64,000 nt of DNA from Bispira polyomma (Eukaryota). The position numbers were made by a program, and so were the translations under genes. Below, one piece after another: positions 26,425 to 43,261 of this stretch; position 1 is the stretch's first letter, and each line of letters opens with the position of its first letter. The stretch spans positions 15,810,001 through 15,874,000 of the forward strand of contig OZ287753.1 in the NCBI GenBank assembly GCA_965649765.1. Direction: 5' to 3'. Under the pieces are notes generated by a model that worked only from the letters and a program-made list of their open reading frames with translations, had not been told where the DNA came from and made no database searches.

Positions 26425-29400
26425 ATCTATGATCTAGTACAGTGATGAGACCAACCAGTCCCACTATCAGTTAGCCAATAATCTATTACAGTGATCAGAC
26501 TCAACCAGCCCCACTACCCAGTTAGTCAATGATTTAGTACAGTGATCAGACCCAACGAGCCCCACAACTAAGTTAGCCCTAGGATCTAGTACAGTGATGA
26601 GACTTAACCAGCCCTACTACCCAGTTAGCCAATGATCTAGTACAGTGGTGAGACCCAACAAGCCCCACTACCCAGTGATACCCATAATCTTGTACAGTGA
26701 TAAGACCTAACCAGCCCGCTACCCTTTTAGCCCCATGTTCTGGTACAGTCATCAGAACTAACCACCCCACTACCCTGTTAGCCCTATGATCTAATACAGT
26801 GATTAGATCTAACCAGTCCCACTACTTAGTTAGCCCCATGATCAAGTACAGTGAAGAGATCCAACAAGCCCCACTACCCAGTTAGTCCCATAGTCTAGTG
26901 CAGTAAAAAAACCTAGCCAGCCCCATTACCAAGTAAGTCCCATAGTCTAGTACAGTGATGAAAAGTAACCAGCCACATTATCAAGTAAGTTCCATAGTCT
27001 AGTAGAGTGATGAAACCTAACCAGCCCCACTACCAAGAAAGTCCATAGTGCAGTACAATTATAAGACCTACCCATCAACGTTACCCAGTGAGCCCTATGA
27101 TGAAGTACAGTTGTGAGACCCAAACAGTCCCAGAATGCAATTTCTTAAGAACAAGAGTTATATTAGTGTATCGACTGGTGTTTGACACAATTCTAGCTGC
27201 ACTATTTTGAATGCATTGTAATTTGCGTAAATTAAACTTTGAGAGACTCCTGAAAAGTGACTTGCAGTAATCCAGTCTACTACCGACAAAAGCATTGGCC
27301 ACAAGTATAGAAGCATCATAAGTGAGAAACCGTCTGACACGTCTAAAGTCATCGAGTTGCATAAAACAGCTTTTGCAGACACTCTGAACGTGTTTAGGGA
27401 AAGAAAAGTCAGAGTCAAACCATACACCCAGGTTCATGACAGAATCAGCTGGACTGAAAGGGCTACCCAGGATGTCAACTGGAAACAATGCTTTCAACTT
27501 ATCCCTCTGTTGTTTTGAGCCAAAGATTATGAACTCAGTCTTGTCGGGATTAAGTTTGAGTTTACCAGTTAACATCCACTCTTATACATCGTCAAGGCAC
27601 CTGTTCAACTGTTCAAAGGCAGTAGATGTGTTTTTATGGGATAGGTGCACATAAATTTGGGTATCATCTGCATAAAAATGAAACTTTATTCCTGTGTATT
27701 TGCCAATAACCAATCTGAGAGGGGAAGTGTATATTGAGAACAACAGAGGGCCCAAAACAGAACCTTGAGGAACACCAAACAAGAGTTTACAAAGATCGGA
27801 CAGAGTAGAGCCAATTTTTATCGACTGATAACGATCAGTAAAGTAGGAAGTGAACCATTTAAGAACAGAGCCCCTAACTCCAAACCAAGTCTGAAGACAA
27901 CTGAGAAGTGTGGAATGATCAATGGTATCAAAGGCAGCAGAGAGGTCGAGCAATACCAGGGCAGTAGGTTCCCCTCTTGACAAAGATAGGTGAACTTCAT
28001 TTTTTATAGACAGAAGAGCTGTCTCAGTCGAATGACCAGTTTTGTACGCAGACTGGTATGGGTTGTCTAAGTCGTGGACAAAGATGTGATCTAACAGTTG
28101 CCTAGCAACCACACGTTCAACCAGTTTTGATATGAAACTAAGACCAGATACAGGGCGATAATTCTTCAGGTCATCAACTGGAAGAGAAGCCTTCTTAATA
28201 AGAGGAGTAACCACAGCTGTTTTAAAACCATCAGGTACATGTCCCTCTGTAAGTGAGCAGTTTACAAGCTTTGTAATGGATGGTAGTAATATATCACTAC
28301 ATTCTTTAATAAGAGATGTTGGCCATGGATCCAACATGCAGGATTTTGTAGGCGAGTTATTTAATATTTTACTAACATCATCTTCAGAGACTCTGGTAAA
28401 GCAGTAATTTCTGGGGGATCAGAAAGAGGATGAACATCAATTTTAGTTCCAGAGACTACCCAGTGAGCCCCATGATCAAGTATAATGAAGAGAACCTAAC
28501 AAGCCCCACTACTCAGTTATCCATATGATCTAGTATAAGGAAGAGACCTAACCAGCACCCCTACCCACTTAGCCCCATGATCTAGTACAGTCATGAGACC
28601 TAACCCACCCCATTACCCAGTGAGCCCCATAATCTAGTACAGTGAATAGACCTAACAAGCCACACTACCCAGTGAGCCCTATAATCTAGTGCAGTGAATA
28701 GACCTAACTAGCCCCACTACCCAGTGAGCCCAAAAATATAGTACAATGATGAGACCAAACAAGCCCCACTACCTATTTAGGCCCGTGATCTAGTACACTG
28801 CTAAAACCTAACCAGCCCCACTACCCAGTTAGCTCCATAATCTAGTGCAAGGAAGAGATCTAACCAGCCCCACTGCCCTGTTAGCTTAAAATATAGTAAA
28901 GTGATAAGCTCTAACAAGCCCTACTACCCAGTTAGCCCCATGATCTAGAACACGGAAGAGACTCAAGCAGCTCCATTACCCAAAAAGCATCATAATATAG
29001 TACATAGATAAGCTCTAACCAGCCATATTACCAAGTAAGTCCCATAGTCTTGTACACTGCTGAGACCTGAGCATCCCCGCTATCCAGTTAGTCCCATGTT
29101 CTAGTATAGGGATCAGATCCAACCAGCCCCACTACCCAGTTAGCCCCATGTTCTAGTACAGTGATCAGATCTAACAAGCCCCACTACCCAGTGAGTTCCA
29201 TGATCTAGTACAGAAAGAGACACAACCAGCCCATTACTTAGTTAGCCTCATGATCTAGTACAGGGAAGATACCCAATCAGCTCCATTACGAGTTAGCTTC
29301 ATGTTCTAGTACAGTGATGATACCTAACCAGTCCTATCATCTAGTACAGTGATGGGAAATAACCACCCCCACTATCTATTTTGACCCATGTTCTAGTACA

Positions 29401-29942: not shown

Positions 29943-30061
29943 TACTTACTTCTGTGAGGACAACTATATCTCATTTTGTCATTTACTAGCAGTACTTTTA
30001 AATGAAATTACTTAATCTTTTGCAGTTGAATGCAATGGTTGATTCAACTATTACTAATTCC

Positions 30062-30410
30062 TGGAAAGGATAAAGTTGCAGAACGGATTCTTCAAGCCAG
30101 GTCAGCTTTTCAGGCGAAAGTTGAGGCCAGCTGTCTCCCATACAATCCAAATTGGTTAGAAAGGAAAGAAAAGGTGATGGAGGAAGTCATTTGTGCCAAA
30201 GCGAAATGGTGTCAGGACTTTTGTGATGTGCTGGTTGAAACAGATGGTGTTTTTGCTGAAGCTGTACCTGGTGAACTCTTCTGGTCAACTGGTCTGAACA
30301 AAACGGATATTTTCAATGTGAAAAAAAGTTCTTGGCCAGGAAAAAATAAGCTGGGTAAGCTTCTCACAACCATAAAGGAAAGCATTGCAGATCGTAACAG
30401 TGATGAATAA
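30062..30410 (+). CDS. 3' part of LINE ORF1 encoding a NADAR (YbiA-like) domain
   Basis: GKDKVAERIL..RSAFQAK...W....EKVMEEVICAK..WCQDF.DVLVET...FAEA..GELFWSTGL........WPGKNKLGKLL matches the NADAR C-terminal consensus. The stop codon overlaps the ORF2 ATG (ATGAATAA, 30403-30410). Confidence 0.8.
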
Positions 30411-33400
30411 TGTTTCAGTATTGACTTATAACTGTCGAGGACTAAATGACAATGAAAAAAGGTGTAAACTATTTTTATGGTTAGTAAATCAAAACTTTGA
30501 CTTAATATTTTTACAAGAAACATTTTGTACTAAACAATGTAAAGCATACATTAAAGCAGGGTGGAAAGGTAATGTTGTCTTAGCTCCAACTGACTCTACT
30601 CACAGTAGGGGAGTTGGACTTCTAATCAAAGAAAATTTCGAAGGAAAAATTATTAGTAGTTATACAGATAAAGATGGTAGAATTCTTCTGGTAAACATTG
30701 AAATTGATGACAACATTCTTAGTGTTGTTTCAGTGTATGCTCCAAATCATGAAAATGATAGAGTTTTATTTTTTGATAAACTAAAACAGTGGATACTGCA
30801 ATATGCAGAAAATTTAGAAAATTTGATTATTGCTGGGGACTTTAATTGCTTTTTAAAACAATCAGATAGATTTCCACCTTCATGTAAAAATGATAAAAGT
30901 GTGAAAAGTTTTAAAAAATTACTCACGCACTGTGATTTAAATGATATTTGGTCCTTTTATAGGCCTGACGTACCAGGGTATACTTACTATGATAAGAAAT
31001 CAAAATGTTACAGCAGACTAGATTATATTTTAGTTAGTAGTAACATACAGTATGATGTTAAAAATATGGCAATTACACGGCCAGTTAAAAATCATGGGGT
31101 CATAGACCACTCTGGCCTTAAAGTTATATTCAAGATAAATGCATCACAAAGGGGTCCAGGGTACTGGAAGTTAAATAACAGTGTATTATTTGATAAGGAA
31201 TATGTTCAATTAATAAACAGTGTTATTAGTGACACTATGGTTGAGTATAGTGACTTAAACTCTTGTCAATTAATATGGGAAATGGTTAAAGCAAATGTAA
31301 GAGAATTTTCTATAAAATACTGTAAAAAAAAGTCATGATAAAGTCAGACATGCTAGATGAAATTCAACAAAAAATAGATGATATTAATATATGCATCACA
31401 AAACTGGAAACCAAAACATCTCTAAACCCAAAAGAATTAGAACAATTGCAGGATTATAAGTTACGCAAGGGACAACTAGAAAGTAACCAGATAAATCTGT
31501 ATAATGAGAAAGCCAAGGGATATTCAATTCGTGCAAAAACTAAGTGGGTTAAAGAAGGGGATATTCCATCAAAATATTTTTTGGGATTAGAAAAACAGCA
31601 ACAATCCAATAATGTTATAAGAAAAATTCAAAGTACTGATAAGGTGTGTACAAATAATAGAGATGTACTGAAAGAAATGGTAAAATTTTATGATAATTTA
31701 TATGCGGAATCAAACATATCTCAGGAGTCAGTAAAAAAATATATTAATGCATCTACCCCTCCAAAAACTCTTGATGACAATGATAGAAACTTTTGTGACA
31801 AGTCTTTAACAAAAGAAGAAGTAAGACTAACTGTTAAGAGTTTAAAAAGAAACAAATCACCCGGAACTGATGGCTTAACATATGAATTTTACCAAATGTT
31901 TTGGACAAAATTAGAACCAATATATATTAAAATGTTAGAAGAAAGTTTTCACAAAGGAATTTTACCTGACAGTACAAAAAAAGCTATTTTAAGCTTGATT
32001 TTCAAAAAAGGTGACAGATGTCTACTTAAAAATTATCGACCAATTAGTTTAACAAATTGTGATTATAAAATTCTGACATTTGTCCTAGCTAAGCGTCTTC
32101 AAAATGTTATTTCAAAACTTATATCACATGACCAAAGTGGATATATAAAGAACAGATATATTGGATTTAACGCAAGATTAATTAATGATGTCATAGAATA
32201 TTGTGAGACCTTGGAAAAACCAGGAGCAATAATTTGCTTAGATTTTGAGAAAGCTTTTGACAAACTTAACTGGTATTTCATGTTTTATTGTCTGGAAAAA
32301 TTTGGATTTGGCACAAATTTCATCAGTTGGATTAAAATTTTGTATAATAAACCATCTTTTTGTGTAAAAAATAATGGCTGGATTTCTATGGAAACACTTA
32401 TGAGGAGAGGTGTAAGACAAGGCTGCGCAGTATCAGCATTACTATTTATATTAGCTATAGAATTCTTGTCAATTGAAATTAGACAAAGTGATATAATAAG
32501 AGGAATTCGAATATTTGATAAAAGATCATGTTTGATTCAATATGCAGATGATATAACTTTAACATTAGAAAAACATTTGAAAACTCAATAATAAATGCAC
32601 TAAAATTGTTAAAATCATTTTCTGCAGTGTCAGGTTTAACACTAAATCTTGATAAGTGTGCAGGATTATGGCTTGGAACGATAAAAAACAACCCAGATGT
32701 CTTTGAAAAAATTAAATTTAGTAGAGGTCCCATAAAATGTCTAGGAGTATATATAGGAATTGATTCAGATTCATGTGAGAAAGCAAACTGGGATAAAAAA
32801 GTAAATCAAGTTGAAAAGTTATTATTAAACTGGAGTAAAAGAAAATTAACACTATATGGCAAATCCACTATTATAAATAACATTATTATTCCAAAATTGG
32901 TATATAATTTGACAATACTGTATACACCACCTTATATAATTAAACAATTGGAGAATTTAATTTACTCCTTCCTGTGGGGAAAACATCACAAAGTCAAAAA
33001 GTATATAGTTATTGCAGAACATGAAAATGGAGGTTTAAATGTAACTGATATTGAATCCAAAATAAGAGCTCTGAAGATATCATGGATCCCAAAATTGTTA
33101 AACAATCCAAAAAGTAAAGTATTTAGGATTTTACAAATGTATCTTGTATCAATTGGCATAGACATTAATATACTATTACAAATGAATTTCCGCAAAATTG
33201 CTGCTTTTGAAACTATTACAAAAATTCCAAAATTTTATCAAGAAATTTTTATTTCATTCAATAATTGTAAATTAATAAAACCAATAAATAATTTAAATAA
33301 CACTGAAATATTTTGTCAACCAATTTGGGGAAACGAATACTTTAAAGTTAAAAATAAACATCTGTACTACAAGAACTGGGTAGAAAGTGGTTTTATATAT

Positions 33401-34222
33401 GTTAAAGACCTTTTCGACCAAAGCGGTGCTCTTTTAAATGAGACACAAGTTCTGAGAAAATTAGGAGATAAGTCAAACTGGATAGCAGAATTTTTTACAC
33501 TTAAAAATATCTTTGTAAAATTAGTATGTAAAAAGTATGACACTTCAAAATGCAAATATATTCAAAACACAGTGTGTAAAAATGTTAGCTTCTGGGCTAA
33601 TGGTAAATTTAATCACCCAGATTCTTTAAAATCAAATGAAATATATAAAATATTGATAAAAAAGAAATATGAAAAACCCTATATAGAAAATATGTGGAAG
33701 AGAAAGTTAGAAATTGAAATAGACAGAAATAGATGGAAAAAAATATACCTCATGAATTTTAAATCTTTTAAATATAAAAAGTTTTCAGAATTTAAATTCA
33801 AAATACTTCACAACATATTAAGTTGTGGTGATAAATTGTGTAAGTGGAACCGAAATTTTACAGGCTTGTGTGCATATTGTAATCAATCCGAAAATATCTG
33901 CCATATGCTATATAATTGTCCAAGAGTAAAGCAGATCTGGTCGATTATTAGTAATTGTTTAAAATTAAACGTATTGTTAAAGCACATAATTTTAGGAGTA
34001 TCTGATGATAACTATGTAAATGAGAATAAAGCTCTTTGTATAGTGATAATAAGCTATGCCATTTATAGCACTTGGTGTAAATGTAACTTGAACAATATGG
34101 ATTATAAGTTAGTATGTATAAGAGATCATATAAAACAACAACTATTATTCTATGGTGAAGTATATCAAACTATACTAGCACATAACCCTACTAGAAGATC
34201 ACATATGAAATGTATCACATAA
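30403..34222 (+). pseudogene. L1/Tx1 ORF2 (APE endonuclease, RT, C-terminal CCHC) with two frameshifts
   Basis: TYNCRGL, LQET, VYAPN, GDFN, SRLDY, DH; KSPGTDG, NYRPISL, LDFEKAFD, VRQGC, QYADD; CAYCNQSENICHMLYNC. Frameshifts at the A8 run 31324-31331 and near 32570-32590. Confidence 0.93.
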
Positions 34223-34534
34223 TGTATTGTATACCACCTGCATTAGTATGATTTTGTTGTCAATTGTAAAAAGAATTTAAGAAATGTTAGGGTGGACATA
34301 GTTTATATCAAGTAGTGCTGGAATATAAATCTTGTAACTTAAAGTTTTCAGGTAACATTAGTCTTTGTAATGGTTGAAAGCATTGTTTATATTACTCATA
34401 CTGTGTATGAAACTGTTGTTAAAAACCTGATGGAAGGTTGCCACTCTCGCCTTCCCAGGTTTCACCTATTATTGTTTGTGAAAAAAGAGTGAATAAATAA
34501 AATGAAACCTTTTTTAAAAAAAAAAAAAAAAAAA

Positions 34535-35693
34535 TTTGTTATTTCTTTTTTTATTTTTTGCAAGTAAAAAGTTTTGTGGCGTTGGTGGCGGCGATGGCGG
34601 CGGCGGCAGCAAATTTATAATTTTTTCTTTCAAGGATAAAAGTTTCGTGGCGACGATGGTGGCAGCGCCAGCAAATTTGTTTTGTGGCAGTCAACTTCAT
34701 CTTTCCCTCCCGTCCACCCACCCCAAATAGAAGAAGTTCCGTGGGTCCCCCACGAATGTGAAAATATTTTTGGGTGGAGAACTTTATTTTGTGAGTATAT
34801 ATTTCACGGGAGTTACCATGAAGGACAAACCTTTCTACTTTTGGGGCTATTTTTTATGGTCTTTTACTGTAACATACCTGGATAACTATCGATATACAGC
34901 AAAATGGGGATAAATGGAAATTTCTTGTTTTACATTAGTAGTAGCACTAAAAAAAAAAAAAAAAATTGTCAACCACATATTTTTCTGATTTCCTTATTTC
35001 TAGGTCCAAACAAAAGCTGGAAAATCTGATGTTCATCAAACTGTAAAGCGAAAACTTCGTTCAAGAAAGCATCGACAGAATTGATGAACGTTACTCAAAT
35101 GTTTTGTGGTTTAACTAGCCGGTGTTGTGCCATACTTGTATCAATTGTTTAATACATATATTCTTTGTGTTTTTATGATTTTTGATCATGATCAAAAATG
35201 GTCAACATATTATTCTCCACTTCTCTCCCCTTGTAACAGTAGGACTGCAGTTTTATAGGTGGGAAATCTGTGCTAAAATGTAAAAGTCAGGCTTTGTAGT
35301 TTACCTTGCTCATATTGCTAGTAGCGCTGTATGTATGTGATATGTTAAAAGTGATATGGTACTTGCTAATTTGAGTGAATCTGTAATATTGTATTATCCT
35401 GTTTTGAAATGTGTAATATTTATAATTACTCAACAGGTAATTCCTAATTTGAGTGAACTTGTAATATATTATCTTGTATTGAAATGTGTAATGTTTATAA
35501 TTACTGAACAGGTAATTGCTAATTGGAGTGAATCTGTAATATATTATTATCCTATAATCGGTAATCTTTGTAATTATTTAAGACGTTCTTGTCCTGTATT
35601 AAAATTTATATTACTAGTTTCCAGATATCTTTTATGTTAATAATTATATAAAAAAAAAATTATATATCACAATAATCACTCCATTCTTAGAAT

Positions 35694-35695
<2 letters not shown>
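34535..35695 (+). other. 3'-transduced flanking DNA from the source locus
   Basis: Lies between the LINE poly(A) and the terminal poly(A)/TSD. Contains an internal A17 (34949-34965), GGC-rich repeats, a candidate terminal exon (35004-35084) and a ~76-bp tandem repeat (35358-35555). Confidence 0.82.
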
Positions 35696-35738
<43 letters not shown>

Positions 35739-35969
35739 ATTACTAATTCCATGTGTAGTGTGTATCAACAGAGTAAATAGATGAATGCAGGTTCAAACAA
35801 AATTATTATTTAGGTTTTAGGCATTTCACTGCTCTAATTGAAACTAGAAATTAGTAAGACAAAAAAAACTTTACAGGCATTTACAAAATAATATACTAAT
35901 TGAAGTATTATTAATAGGATTTTCTAGTAATAAAATAAAGCACATTCATATAGTGAGTGAGAGAGCATA

Positions 35970-37490
35970 CAGGGAACTCAGGCCATTTGATAAGGGTTAA
36001 TTACATCACAGCATGTGTTAAACAAGCATAAAACTGTGTTCACACTGTAAGGAAGATATGCCTTGATGTTTTGATGGGGGGAAAAGTTAATTTAACATTT
36101 TTAGTTGTAAAATTTTTCATAATAGTTTCAGTATGGTGTGAGATGAAGTTTGTATTATAGTTGATAGAAGCTACACTATAAATTTCCATTTGACACAGTA
36201 TATCTTGTTTTTCATAATAGATACTAACTTAAAATTAAATAGGACTGTTATACCTGGGTTCTCATTATACATAGAGTCTTGTGTGAATAGAAATGAGCAA
36301 TGACCAAATTGTAACATTTTAGGTCTAGAAGTCCCAAGTTACAAACAAATTAAGTGCAGTGTTATATGAAATTTTATTTTGGTAATTTATGCTCTTTAAA
36401 TTAATAGCTTCTTTCAGAGTTTTTTTTCCATATTTTTTATTTACATTATATACAAGTACAATACAGGAACAAAACACATACACAATCACACATACACAAT
36501 CACATTACAAAAAAAAAAATAAAAATAAAAAACAACAAAATTTGAGACACAATGAAACTATACGGAATACCAGTGTATGATTAAAGCCAAGTCGATATCT
36601 AAGTATTATCATTTCTAGATCAGAAACCCTTTAAATAATTTTGTGGTACATATACTTGGTCAGGTGACATCTTATTTAGGAGGACCAGGTTACAGTATTA
36701 TATGTTTTGTTTTAAATATCTGAAATAAAAACTGTGGCCTAGACCCTTTAATGATTAAATCCAAATTATTATCCAAATATTTACATGTCTAGACATGGAA
36801 GCTCTAATTTGACAGTTACTTCACAGCACAGTGTTATTTAAATTCTTGTTTAGGTGGAAAACACTTCTAATAGAAGAAAACAATTAGGTTAAACTTTGTA
36901 AATAAAAGCAAGTTTATATCCAAATATTAACAATATTAATGCATGGAGCTCCTGAATTTACAGTTAATTTGAATGTACAATGTAAATTAAGTTTTTTATT
37001 TTTGCAAATAAGACTAGTAATTTATAGGTTCATTAAGGGGCACTAAATTCAAATACTTTTAAACAAAACTCTATCGCCTTTTATGATTATAACCAAATTT
37101 TTATATAAATGTTTCTTATATCATCAATCGACAGTTAATTTCATAAAATAAGGATGTCAGGTGACCAATGATAAAATATTTCATGATCTCCTGTAGATAT
37201 ACTGATTTCAAATAGAACAGAACTATTATCTGAAACTTTTTGTGATTAAAACAAAGTTTATACTCATATATTACATTTTTAGGTTACCTGTGCTATATTT
37301 ACAGTAAACATTATATGCTGTATTTATGCACTTTCAGTGAGTTTGTGTAAAACCTAAATAAAAAAGGAGTATATATATTTAGACACACAGGGAACTCAGT
37401 GGATGAGATAATTACTAATTACATCACAGCATGTGTCAAACAAGCATAACTGTGTTTACACTGTGTAATGCAGGAAAGCCTTGTTTGTTT
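35970..37490. repeat. Diverged direct repeat pair (~100 bp, ~1.42 kb apart)
   Basis: GGGAACTCAG...TAATTACATCACAGCATGTGT.AAACAAGCATAA...CTGTGTT.ACACTGT at ~35972 and ~37390. Confidence 0.7.
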
Positions 37491-38029: not shown

Positions 38030-41000
38030 TTAGATTCCTATTGCAGATTTAAAAACCTATATAATTGGTTTCCCCATACAGGGACCCCAAGTTCAAATCA
38101 CATGCAACTCTAAGACACATATAGTTATGTCCCATTCTCAGTTAACTTTCTAATATGAACAATTTTAAGTGTGGAATGGTCAATTTACAGTAGGTTTAGG
38201 GTACTCTGTCACCTCAGATTCCTATTGAGGATTTAAAAACCTATGTAATTGTTGTTTACATTGAGAGACTCTTAACTTTAAATCACATACAACCATAGGA
38301 CACATATTGTTACTGTTCCATTGTCAGTTAAATCTCAAATATAAATAATTTTAGGTGTGGAAATGGTCAATTTACTGTAGGTTTCAGTGTACTCTGTCAC
38401 ATCAGATTCCTATTGAGAGGTAAAAGACCAATGTAATTGGTGTCTACATTGAGGGACTCTAAGTTCAAATCACATACAACTATGAGACACATATAGTTAT
38501 GTCTGATTCTCAGTAAATTTTCATGTATTAATAATTTTAGGTGTGGAAATAGTAAATTTACAGTACATTCTAGGATACTATGTATCCTTAGACTCCTATT
38601 AGGGAGTTTAAGACCTATGTAATTGGTGTCCCAATTCAGGGACCCTAAGTTCAATTTACATACAACTATGAGACACATATAGTTATGTCCCATTCTCAGT
38701 TAAATTTCAAATATAAACAATTTTAGGTGTGCAAATGGTCAATTTACAGTGGGTTTTAGTGTACTCAGGGTTCGATGTTTGCGATAGTCTGGTAGTCCGA
38801 GACTACCAAAAATTGAAACGGACTACTAAACCCCTTGTAAAAGGTAGTCCGACAGACTACTTCATATAATTTAACATATATCAGCGAATTTTTACCTTAA
38901 CTTCAACCAACACTGCAAATATGATGTTTAAATGAGGAAAAGACACAGCTCTAAAATCGCCCAATTCTAGGGAGGTAGCTTGAAAATTGCCTAAATCTTG
39001 GAAGGTAGCTTGAAAATTGCCTAAATCCTAAGAAGTAGTAATATTTTAGTAGTGATCAATAATTTTTATTGGTTTGTGGTTTCCATGTCAATACTTCTGC
39101 CAATAGTATTTAATTTTACAATTTCAAACTGTAAGGACTCTGATTTTTGGCCTGATAACTTACTAAATGGCCAGCAATAAAAAACAAGGCACAATCTCCT
39201 TTTTTTTCTGGAGCTCAGCCCCACCTAAACAGTGGTGTGTTACCTGGTTTGTAATACTCCTAGATCCTGTGGTATGTTACCTGGCTTCTAATATTCACTC
39301 TATCTTGCACCGTTATAGGTCACTCTAATAGATTGACTACATTTCGGCTGGACTACCAACTTTTTGTTCGGACTACCAAAAATTAAAATCAGGTAGTCCA
39401 GCAGACTACCACCATATTTTGTGAACATCTAACCCTGGTACTCTGTCACCTCAGATTCCTATTGAGGATTTAAACACCTATGTAATTGCTGTCCATATTC
39501 AGGGACACCTAGTTCAAATCACATACAACTATAAGACACATATACTTATGTCCAATTCTCAAATTATTTTCAAATATGAACAAGCTTATGTGTGGAAATA
39601 CTCAAAATGCCTTAGATTTCAGTGTACTCTGTCACCTCAGATTCCTATTGAGGATTTAAAAACCTATGTAATTTTTGTTTACATTGAGGGACTGTAAGTT
39701 CAAATCACATACAACTATGAGACAGATATAGTTATGTCTGATTCTCAGTAAATTTTCATGTATTAATAATTTTAAGTGTGAAAATAGTCAATTTACAGTA
39801 CATTTTAGGATGCTATGTATCCTAAGACTCCTATTAGGGAGGTTAAAACCTATGTAATTGGTGTCCAAATTCAGGGACCCTAAGTTCAAATCACATGCAA
39901 CTATAAGACACAAAAAGGTATGTCCCATTCTCAGTTAACATTCTAATATGAACAATTTTAAGTGTGGAAATGGTCAATTTACAGTAGGTTTCAGTGTACT
40001 CTGTCACCTCAAATTCCTATAAAGAGGTAAAAGACCAATGTAATTGGTGTCTACATTGAGGGACTCTAAGTACAAATCACATACAACTATGAGACAGATA
40101 TAGTTATGTCCCATTCTCAGTTAAATTTCAAATATAAACAATTTTAGGTGTGAAAATGGTCAATTTACTGTAGGTTTCAGTGTACTCTGTCACCTCAGAT
40201 TCCTTTTGAGGATTTAAAAACCTATGTAATTGTTGTTTACATTAAGGGACTCTAAGTTCAAATCATATACAACTATGAGACACATATATATAGTTATGTC
40301 CCATTCTCAGTAAATTTTCATATATAAATAATTTTAGGTGTGAAAATAGTCAATTTACAGTACATTTTAGGATGCTATGTATCCTAAGACTCCTATTAGG
40401 GAGGTTAAAACCTATGTAATTGGTGTCCCAATTCAGGGACCCTAAGTTCAAATCACATGCAACTATAAGACACATATAGTTATGTCCCATTCTCAGTTAA
40501 CTTTCTAATATGAACAATTTTAAGTGTGGAAATGGTCAATTTACAGTAGGTTTCAGTGTACTCTGTCACCTCAAATTCCTATAAAGAGGTAAAAGACCAA
40601 TGTAATTGGTGTCTACATTGAGGGATTCTAAGCATAAATCACATACAACTATGAGACACATATAGTTATGTTGCATTCTCACATTATTTACAAATATGAA
40701 CAAGCTTAGGTGTGGAAATACTGAAAATGCCTTAGATTTCAGTGTACTCTGTCACCTCAGATTCCTATTGAGGATTTAAAAACCTATGTAATTTTTGTCT
40801 CCTTAGATTCCTATTAGGGAGGTTAAAATCTATGTAATTGGTGTCCCAATTCAGGGACCCAAAGTTCAATTCACATACAACTATGGGACACAAAAAGATA
40901 TATCCCATTCTCAGTTAAATTTCAAAAATAATCAATTTAAGGTGTGAAAATGGTCAATTTGCAGAAGTTTTAGTGTACTCTGTCACCTCAGATTCCTTTT

Positions 41001-41330
41001 GAGGATTTAAAAACCTTTGTAATTGTTGTTTACATTGAGGGACACTAAGCTCAAATCACATACAACTATGAGACACATATAGTTATGTCCCATTCTAACA
41101 TCATTTTCAAATATAAACAAGCTTAGGTGTGGAAATACTCAAAATGCCTTAGATTTGAGGGCACTTTGTCACCTCAGATTCCTATGGATATACTCAACAT
41201 AAAGTAAGGTCATCTGTCACATCAGATTCTTGTTGTATAGTTAAAGACCTTTGTAATTGATGACCAAACTTAGGGACACTAATTTCAAGTCACATAGAAC
41301 TATGAGATAAATATAGTTAAGTCTTATTCT
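38030..41330. repeat. ~187-bp satellite array with a local 3-mer (562-bp) higher-order repeat
   Basis: Units contain GTACTCTGTCACCTCAGATTCCTATTGAGG...AAATCACATACAACTATGAGACACATATAGTTATGTCCCATTCTCAG. A diagnostic variant recurs at 39796 and 40358. Confidence 0.92.
38766..39437. mobile_element. Non-autonomous TIR element with a 5-bp TSD (hAT5-like)
   Basis: TIRs CAGGGTTCGATGTT and AACATCTAACCCTG (13/14). GTACT is duplicated at 38761-38765 and 39438-39442. Multiple GACTAC/GTAGTC subterminal repeats. Confidence 0.85.
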
Positions 41331-41334
41331 AATT

Positions 41335-42545
41335 AAGGTGGAGATTTGATATATATCTTAGGAAGTAAAAGCCTAACTTAAGGGGACATTTAGGGTATAT
41401 CTTAGGTTGAAAAAAACCTAACTAAAGTGGACATTAGGGGTATATCTTGTGATGGAAAAACTTAAACTTAGGTGGACATTTAGTGTATATCTTGCAATGT
41501 AAAAAACTAATTTAAGTGGACATTTAGTGTTTATCTTGTGATGGAAAAACCTTACTTAAGTGGACATTTAGGCTATATCTTGTGATGGAAAAACCTCACT
41601 TAAGTGGACATTTATTGTATATCTCAGGATGAAAAAGCCTAACTCAAGCAGACATTTAGTGTATATCTTGTGATGTAAAAACCTAACTTAAGTGGACATT
41701 TAGCGTATATCTTTTGATGGAAAAACTTTACTCAAGTGGACATTTAGTGTATATCTTAGGATGTAAAAACCTAACTTAAGAGGACATTAAGGGTATATCT
41801 TGTGATGGAAAAACCTAAATCAAGTGGACATTTAGTGTATATCTTAGGATGTAAAAACCTAACTTAAGTGGACATTAAGGGTATATCTTAGGTTGTAAAA
41901 ACCTAACTTATGTGGACATTCAGTGTATGTCTTAGGATGAAAAAACCTAGCTTAAGTAGACATTTAGGCTATATCTTGTGATTGAAAAACCTAACTCAAG
42001 TGGACATTTAGTGTATATCTTGTAATGGAAAAACCTAACTTAAGTGGACATTTAGTGTATATCTTAGGATGTAAAAACCTAACTTAAGTAGACACTAAGG
42101 GTATATCTTGTGATGGAAAAACCTAACTTAAGTGGACATTTAGTGTATATCTTAGGTTGTAAAAACCTAACTTATGTGGACATTCAGTGTATGTCTTAGG
42201 ATGAAAAAACCTAGCTTAAGTAGACATTTAGGCTATATCTTGTGATTGAAAAACCTAACTCAAGTGGACATTTAGTGTATATCTTGTAATGGAAAAAACT
42301 AACTTGAGTGGACATTTAGTGTATATCTTAGGATGTAAAAACCTAACTTAAGTGGACATTAAGGGTATATCTTGTGATGGAAAAACCTAACTTAAGTGGA
42401 CATTTAGTGTATATCTTAGGTTGTAAAAACCTAACTTATGTGGACATTTAGTGTATATCTTGTGATGGAAAAAGCTAACTTAAGTGGACATTTAATGTAT
42501 ATCTTAGGATGTAATAAAGGCCTAACTTAACTTGGCATATAGTGT
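41335..42545. repeat. 44-bp satellite (~27 copies) with a 264-bp (6-mer) higher-order repeat
   Basis: Consensus AAAAACCTAACTTAAGTGGACATTTAGTGTATATCTTGTGATGG. The variant CTTATGTGG has its TGTGG at 41911, 42175 and 42439. Confidence 0.93.
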
Positions 42546-43261
42546 ACACTTTGATATATAATCTAAAATATTGATAAGCAGCTCTATTTTTAATGGACGT
42601 AGAATTTGAGATATAATTAATTAATTAAAGATATTATTTAATAATATAAGATATTTTGAAGAAGTATCAATATTGAATTTTTTAAACGATAATGATCTAT
42701 ATTTTCAACTTAAACATTTCAGGTAGCGGCCATAATCATTACACATATTTTTGTGAGAATGTAAGATGAATATCTTTTACAAGGCTATTTCTTTATTGTA
42801 AATGATTGTTTTAAGACTTTTGAAAGTTCTAACACATTTGAAAACAGCTGTAAATGTGTTGACCTAAATATAATGTGTTCATTAAGTTTTCATAATACCC
42901 ACCCTGTTTTTAAAATTTGTGATTAAGAAAATATAATTACAAAACTTGCTATATTTTTAAAATTAACATTGGTGAATTTACAAAATAGTGCAAACTTTAT
43001 TTTTTCCATTCTTATCTTATTTATATTTCACATCCCTGTATGTAATAATGTGCACTTAATGTGGTTGTTTTTACATCACTTAAGGAGACAGTCTACATAA
43101 TGATGATTTTAAGTGGTGAAAACATTAAGTAGACATTTTAAGGTAGACAGTTGGGTGATATCTTTTAGTTCTGATTAAAACTCTTAAGTGAATATATATT
43201 TGATATCCCCAGCCAAAAATTAAGAAATTTTTAAAAATTGATATTATTATAATTACAAATT

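Follow-up and report, generated by a model that had tools for sequence, protein, structure and literature searches.

In the partnered 3′ transductions of human L1 and SVA elements covered in PMC9311842, a 5′-truncated long interspersed element (LINE) is followed by an internal A-tail, by a flank copied from another chromosome and by a second tail downstream of the poly(A) signal of that flank, all within one target-site duplication (TSD), and the source may be non-reference. Table 4 of that paper assigns 51 of 268 L1 transductions to non-reference sources, and the rate given there is 2.72% per L1. Here we describe a 5.67-kb block of similar layout in a 64,000-nt window (the whole stretch of DNA that was analyzed, G000:C6:15810001–15874000, in a 1.04-Gb genome). 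The block consists of a truncated LINE, an A19 run, 1.16 kb of DNA from C5 and a second poly(A) within a single 16-bp TSD, and is probably a genuine 3′ transduction by a non-mammalian LINE of the L1/Tx1 group. Compared with the human cases presented in PMC9311842, it differs in the group of the LINE, in a NADAR domain in open reading frame 1 (ORF1), in the target motif WC^AW (W, A or T), and in having a source deduced from an empty site only. The copied segment is also longer than the 8–997 bp reported there, a range that is itself limited by the method of that study.

The closest published parallel to the LINE itself is in the oyster, where Tx1 LINEs of Crassostrea gigas (Repbase families) carry a NADAR domain of the YbiA family in ORF1 (PMC12477816). 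By description only, the two are alike in having NADAR in the C-terminal part of ORF1, an ORF2 with APE endonuclease and reverse transcriptase (RT; 1288 aa in the present family), a poly(A) tail and a TSD; the portion of PMC12477816 that deals with these LINEs makes no mention of transduction. A search of title listings in the open literature returned no report that Tx1 or mollusc LINEs transduce flanking DNA, a negative that carries little weight. Neither the mechanism nor the NADAR fusion is new; the family and the host of the transduction are. The U6/L1 template-switch chimeras, as described in PMC4476161, also hold the sequences of two RNAs within one TSD, but in most of these the host RNA forms the 5′ part and the LINE the 3′ part, whereas here the LINE and its tail are 5′.

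All window features given below lie on the plus strand. The 16-mer AACTATTACTAATTCC is found at 30046–30061 and 35735–35750, and tolerating up to two mismatches adds no third match in the window (mean shuffle expectation, 0.15), as expected from the initial annotation, in which this repeat flanked the LINE and a second tail. Its length falls within the 10–21 bp range of the family, and the context of the left copy, TC^AA, matches the family target. Between the two copies lie, in order, the LINE, AATAAA, T6, A19, 1161 bp that are not LINE and then another A-run. The AATAAA (34492) and A19 (34516–34534) stand where they had been placed, preceded in the case of A19 by T6 at 34510–34515. The reported A41 tail is a real run (35696–35736), but its last two A's already belong to the right TSD, so that 39 A's (35696–35734) lie outside it.

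The insertion target was a host interspersed repeat, which occupies 35751–36350 and continues to the left of 30046, and other copies of this repeat serve as empty sites. We scored 40 candidates, the best of which was approximately 91% identical, and fetched 12 paralogues. In 11 of them the left flank, a single 16-mer site and the right flank are joined, and the twelfth has a small deletion at the site. Since the paralogues join both flanks over one site, 30062–35734 does not belong to the host repeat and forms one block, and the 16-mer is a duplication; the block arrived as one insertion. These empty sites are paralogous, not orthologous, and none retains the segment; its retention at empty sites is what the initial annotation had named as evidence against its proposal. 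A 52-bp tandem array at 26427–29378 seems to be part of the host repeat that was hit.

The copied segment (34535–35695) had 135 matches, and the single full-length one was at C5:69263622–69264757 on the minus strand, 98–98.6% identical, with 14 substitutions and one indel over 1091 aligned nt. For its first 58 nt, the counterpart is an array unit lying farther upstream, with the donor junction at C5:69265038, and the segment as a whole corresponds to G000:C5:69265038–69263622. Its beginning (34535–34831) is part of a GGC-rich tandem array that recurs as inverted pairs at several loci and is foldback-like. At an 8-bp GTGGCGGC repeat (34585–34592), the segment leaves out 247 bp of the donor array; splicing was ruled out as the origin of this skip, as GT-AG or GC-AG is present in no register. 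Only the first two A's of the second tail have a counterpart in the donor, which shows that this tail is untemplated. In the donor, a CA cleavage site stands 37 nt downstream of an AATAAA and is followed by a T-rich stretch; over the 45 kb around the donor, the background for an AATAAA so placed is 4–5% of positions. The other adverse observation named beforehand, that all family copies carry the segment as their normal 3′ untranslated region, did not come true: none of 60 siblings carries it, with 0 of 29 in the blast comparison. We saw no coding sequence in the moved piece, and its effect on the host is therefore probably small.

The donor junction is inside one array of a larger structure. 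G000:C5:69264480–69271600 holds an approximately 7-kb foldback-like element with inverted GGC-rich array ends and no recognised coding frame, and pairs like it occur on C1, C4, C6 and C11. The segment further contains a 75-bp tandem repeat in 2.5 copies (35358–35547), which the donor has too.

To call TSDs across the family we required at least 10 exact bases after an A-rich run, 10 being a chosen lower cut-off. Among 61 copies, 29 had a TSD right after the tail, two had a displaced TSD (the window copy and L087 on C7), and 30 remained uncalled; the last group includes L154, whose 3′ end was mis-delimited, and L144, whose 5′ end lies beyond its stretch. Among the uncalled copies, some have TSDs that are short or contain mismatches, 5′ inversions (L107, L147, L153) or extra 5′ bases, and several called copies have 12–42 nt between the TSD and the start of the element. 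The 29 ordinary copies have TSDs with a median of 14 bp and tails of 11–41 nt. C precedes the TSD in 23 of them, A is its first base in 26, and A or T stands at −2 in 27 and at +1 in 27; thus, read on the sense strand, the family prefers WC^AW as its target. The consensus target of the mammalian L1 endonuclease is 5′-TTTT/AA-3′, a type that these 29 copies do not follow. The name L1 in the initial annotation consequently holds for the L1/Tx1 group but not for the mammalian type. The tail leaves room only for a base other than A ahead of the TSD, and we therefore counted WC conditionally on TSDs that start with A: it precedes 21 of 26 of these, vs 21% of the A-run starts in the window. An unconditional target-matrix score (‘top 0.2%’) was inflated for the same reason and was dropped.

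We consider it likely that the block is a 3′ transduction whose source LINE would have stood at C5:69265038, on a haplotype outside this assembly. Such a LINE, with a TSD starting AAAATTTG, would have been transcribed past its own AATAAA into the flank, and the RNA would have been cleaved at the CA 37 nt after the flank AATAAA and then polyadenylated. Target-primed reverse transcription at C6 would have copied the tail, the flank, the old tail and 4.45 kb of the LINE, and may have halted inside ORF1, giving the 5′ truncation. The internal A19, whose last four A's coincide with AAAA of the donor, is likely the tail of the source copy. Given sibling tails of 11–41 nt, A19 and A39 are more readily taken as products of two polyadenylation events than as pieces of a single 58-nt tail that was split. 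This bears on a DNA-level templated insertion, in which a break in the tail would have been patched with C5 DNA through A-microhomologies (4 nt on the left, 2 on the right). The A-matches at both junctions and the internal microhomology skip agree with such a repair, but the original tail of approximately 58 nt would exceed all 29 sibling tails (maximum 41), the right end lies in a poly(A)-site-like context and the left end at the family target motif, and we regard this origin as highly improbable.

That C5 and C6 were joined in the assembly by mistake has a negligible probability. The junctions do lie in A-runs and a repeat array, and no bridging public contig is readable; however, a mis-join would not yield an untemplated tail together with a 16-bp TSD, there are 15 differences between the copy and C5, and public contigs match the window version exactly and end at the poly(A) site, although these come from one study and possibly from the assembly's own sample. 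The contigs derive from three runs of two samples (S1 and S2), of which S2 may be that sample and hence is not independent. S2 has a 749-nt contig with the window's letters, whose end is the poly(A) site, and a 68-nt contig that spans the array skip. In S1, a contig does not stop at the poly(A) site but continues into the C5 flank, and the S1 contigs mix window-type letters (four sites) with C5-type letters (three sites). This hints that the window/C5 differences are allelic and that S1 is without the insertion, of which contigs cannot prove the absence. The S2 depths (approximately 27 for the segment, 22 for the skip and 11 for the C5 flank) would agree with one C5 allele and two copies of the window type, but were not used, as depth is no copy number.

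The initial annotation had proposed that the segment was copied from the flank of a source element elsewhere in the genome, and that the donor locus should show a full-length element upstream. The donor flank was found at C5, but neither blastn nor tblastn found a LINE in the 45 kb around it (C5:69246001–69291000), and the source is thus not seen in the assembly. Several further observations weigh against a transduction. Both donors identified in this family, the second being that of L087 on C9 described below, are empty, and no source–offspring pair serves as a positive control, since no two of the 61 copies share a 3′ flank. For that reason, too, the ‘master copy’ of the initial annotation is not supported, with one offspring only. 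Of the 61 copies, 30 have no TSD call under the rule used. The 247-bp skip may be an allele or an RT slip. Finally, the window reads AAAAAA at 35653–35658 (35655 being A for T) where the donor has AATAAA, and the source allele may have lacked the hexamer too.

An empty donor is also what a template switch would leave. According to this alternative, RT was primed on a polyadenylated host RNA from C5 and jumped through a 4-A match to the tail of a LINE RNA, without any LINE at C5. Two empty donors and the AAAA microhomology at the junction speak for it, and such switches are established for LINE RTs in the material presented in PMC4476161. We nevertheless consider it unlikely. The validated cases given in that paper are mostly of the opposite direction, from L1 or mRNA to U6/U6atac, the host transcript from C5 is hypothetical, and RT crossed a run of 16 A's inside the segment (34950–34965) without switching. 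In addition, the letters at both donor junctions, GAC^AAAATT on C5 and AAC^ATGTTT on C9, have WC outside the copied part, like an insertion site. A W and a C outside the copied DNA are predicted by an earlier insertion at the donor and not by a template switch. The C5 junction is the only WC site among the 23 A-runs of at least 3 within 350 bp, but the motif alone is modest evidence, WC being found at 17% (C5) and 21% (C9) of A-run starts locus-wide; the match gives roughly four- to fivefold support per junction, which is real but no proof. It is similarly unlikely that priming on polyadenylated host RNAs, followed by a jump to the LINE's own tail, is routine in this family and that no source ever existed. 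If this were true, chimeras with the LINE 5′ and host RNA 3′, the reverse of the U6/L1 type, would mimic 3′ transduction.

Two separate retrotranspositions, the LINE first and later a retrocopy of a C5 RNA into its poly(A) with a TSD hidden in the A's, would produce an identical final structure and would be expected to leave an empty donor; PMC4476161 discusses cases of a first insertion being hit at its 3′ end by a second. This sequence of events would require a second hit within approximately 30 bp of 1.04 Gb, twice in 31 callable copies, into a pure A-run that lacks the family target WC^A, and it gives no reason to expect WC where the donor junctions lie. We judge it very unlikely.

The second displaced TSD supplies a further candidate. 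At L087:7970–8340 (G000:C7:61596570–61596940), a 14-bp TSD is displaced by 290 nt, and the order is a 3′-shortened LINE, A10, 33 unplaced nt, A14, 230 nt from C9, an A-tail and the TSD. The 230 nt match C9:21895810–21896039 (L131) at 98% and end 17 nt after an AATAAA, and no LINE was found in 19 kb at this C9 donor. L087 is likely a second transduction, and possibly arose in two rounds. The extra piece was also considered as a solo long terminal repeat, which was ruled out as its repeat family runs past the junction. Displaced TSDs thus account for 2 of 31 callable copies, which gives a rough transduction rate for the family, to be set beside the 2.72% per L1 quoted from PMC9311842. The findings extend 3′ transduction, of which most descriptions concern mammalian L1, to an L1/Tx1 family that is young and non-mammalian. 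C5:69265038 and C9 near 21896040 are the base-precise addresses where unassembled, once-active source alleles should be, and the WC^AW motif offers a means of spotting vacated or polymorphic source sites.

The LINE in the window (30062–34515) belongs to the youngest subfamily and, as had been noted, is 5′-truncated: its first base corresponds to position 1141 in a natural full-length copy of 5586 bp, the first 1140 bp being absent, and one base (C30061) is common with the TSD. The 3′ end of ORF1 (30062–30410) has a Pfam NADAR domain (PF08719; 54.3 bits, cut-off 35.1), and the family is therefore NADAR-bearing as annotated. ORF2 (30403–34246) encodes an APE endonuclease and RT and has a zf-RVT-like end, zf-RVT being below threshold in the Pfam search. 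Relative to the intact copy L085, ORF2 has A8 for A9 at 31324–31331 and 5 additional nt near 32572. Both frameshifts had been reported as the only damage, but a stop at 34220–34222, eight codons ahead of the stop of the family, had been overlooked.

Full-length family copies are approximately 5.59 kb. L085 (G000:C1:102443577–102449162) has an open ORF1 of 373 aa, with NADAR at residues 237–352, an ORF2 of 1288 aa and a 13-bp TSD, and is the only copy with both frames this long among the 12 full-length copies scanned. Among solved structures, its ORF2 is best matched by human L1 ORF2p (E 6e-89), with R2 at 8e-20; the matches in the structure library comprised L1 and R2 proteins only. With two ORFs, APE and RT, a poly(A) tail and a TSD of variable length, the element falls among the non-LTR retrotransposons of the L1/Tx1 group; the best 120 homologues have no clade names.

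The family is small and young, with 50 exact genome matches to a 27-nt 3′-end pattern. In an alignment of 39 siblings, from which L107 was omitted, the window copy differs by 0.4–0.7% from the 13 nearest and has 12 private substitutions, which none of the 39 shares. The T-run between the LINE end and the poly(A) varies among siblings from 0 to approximately 20. In L114 (G000:C11:35217700–35224300), the last 1.1 kb and the tail are present three times in tandem, with two identical junctions and a single 16-bp TSD; tandem duplication, RT re-priming and assembly error are candidates for this triplication. Besides the 52-bp array, the window contains tandem arrays at 38032–41185 (186 bp) and 41329–42546 (44 bp).

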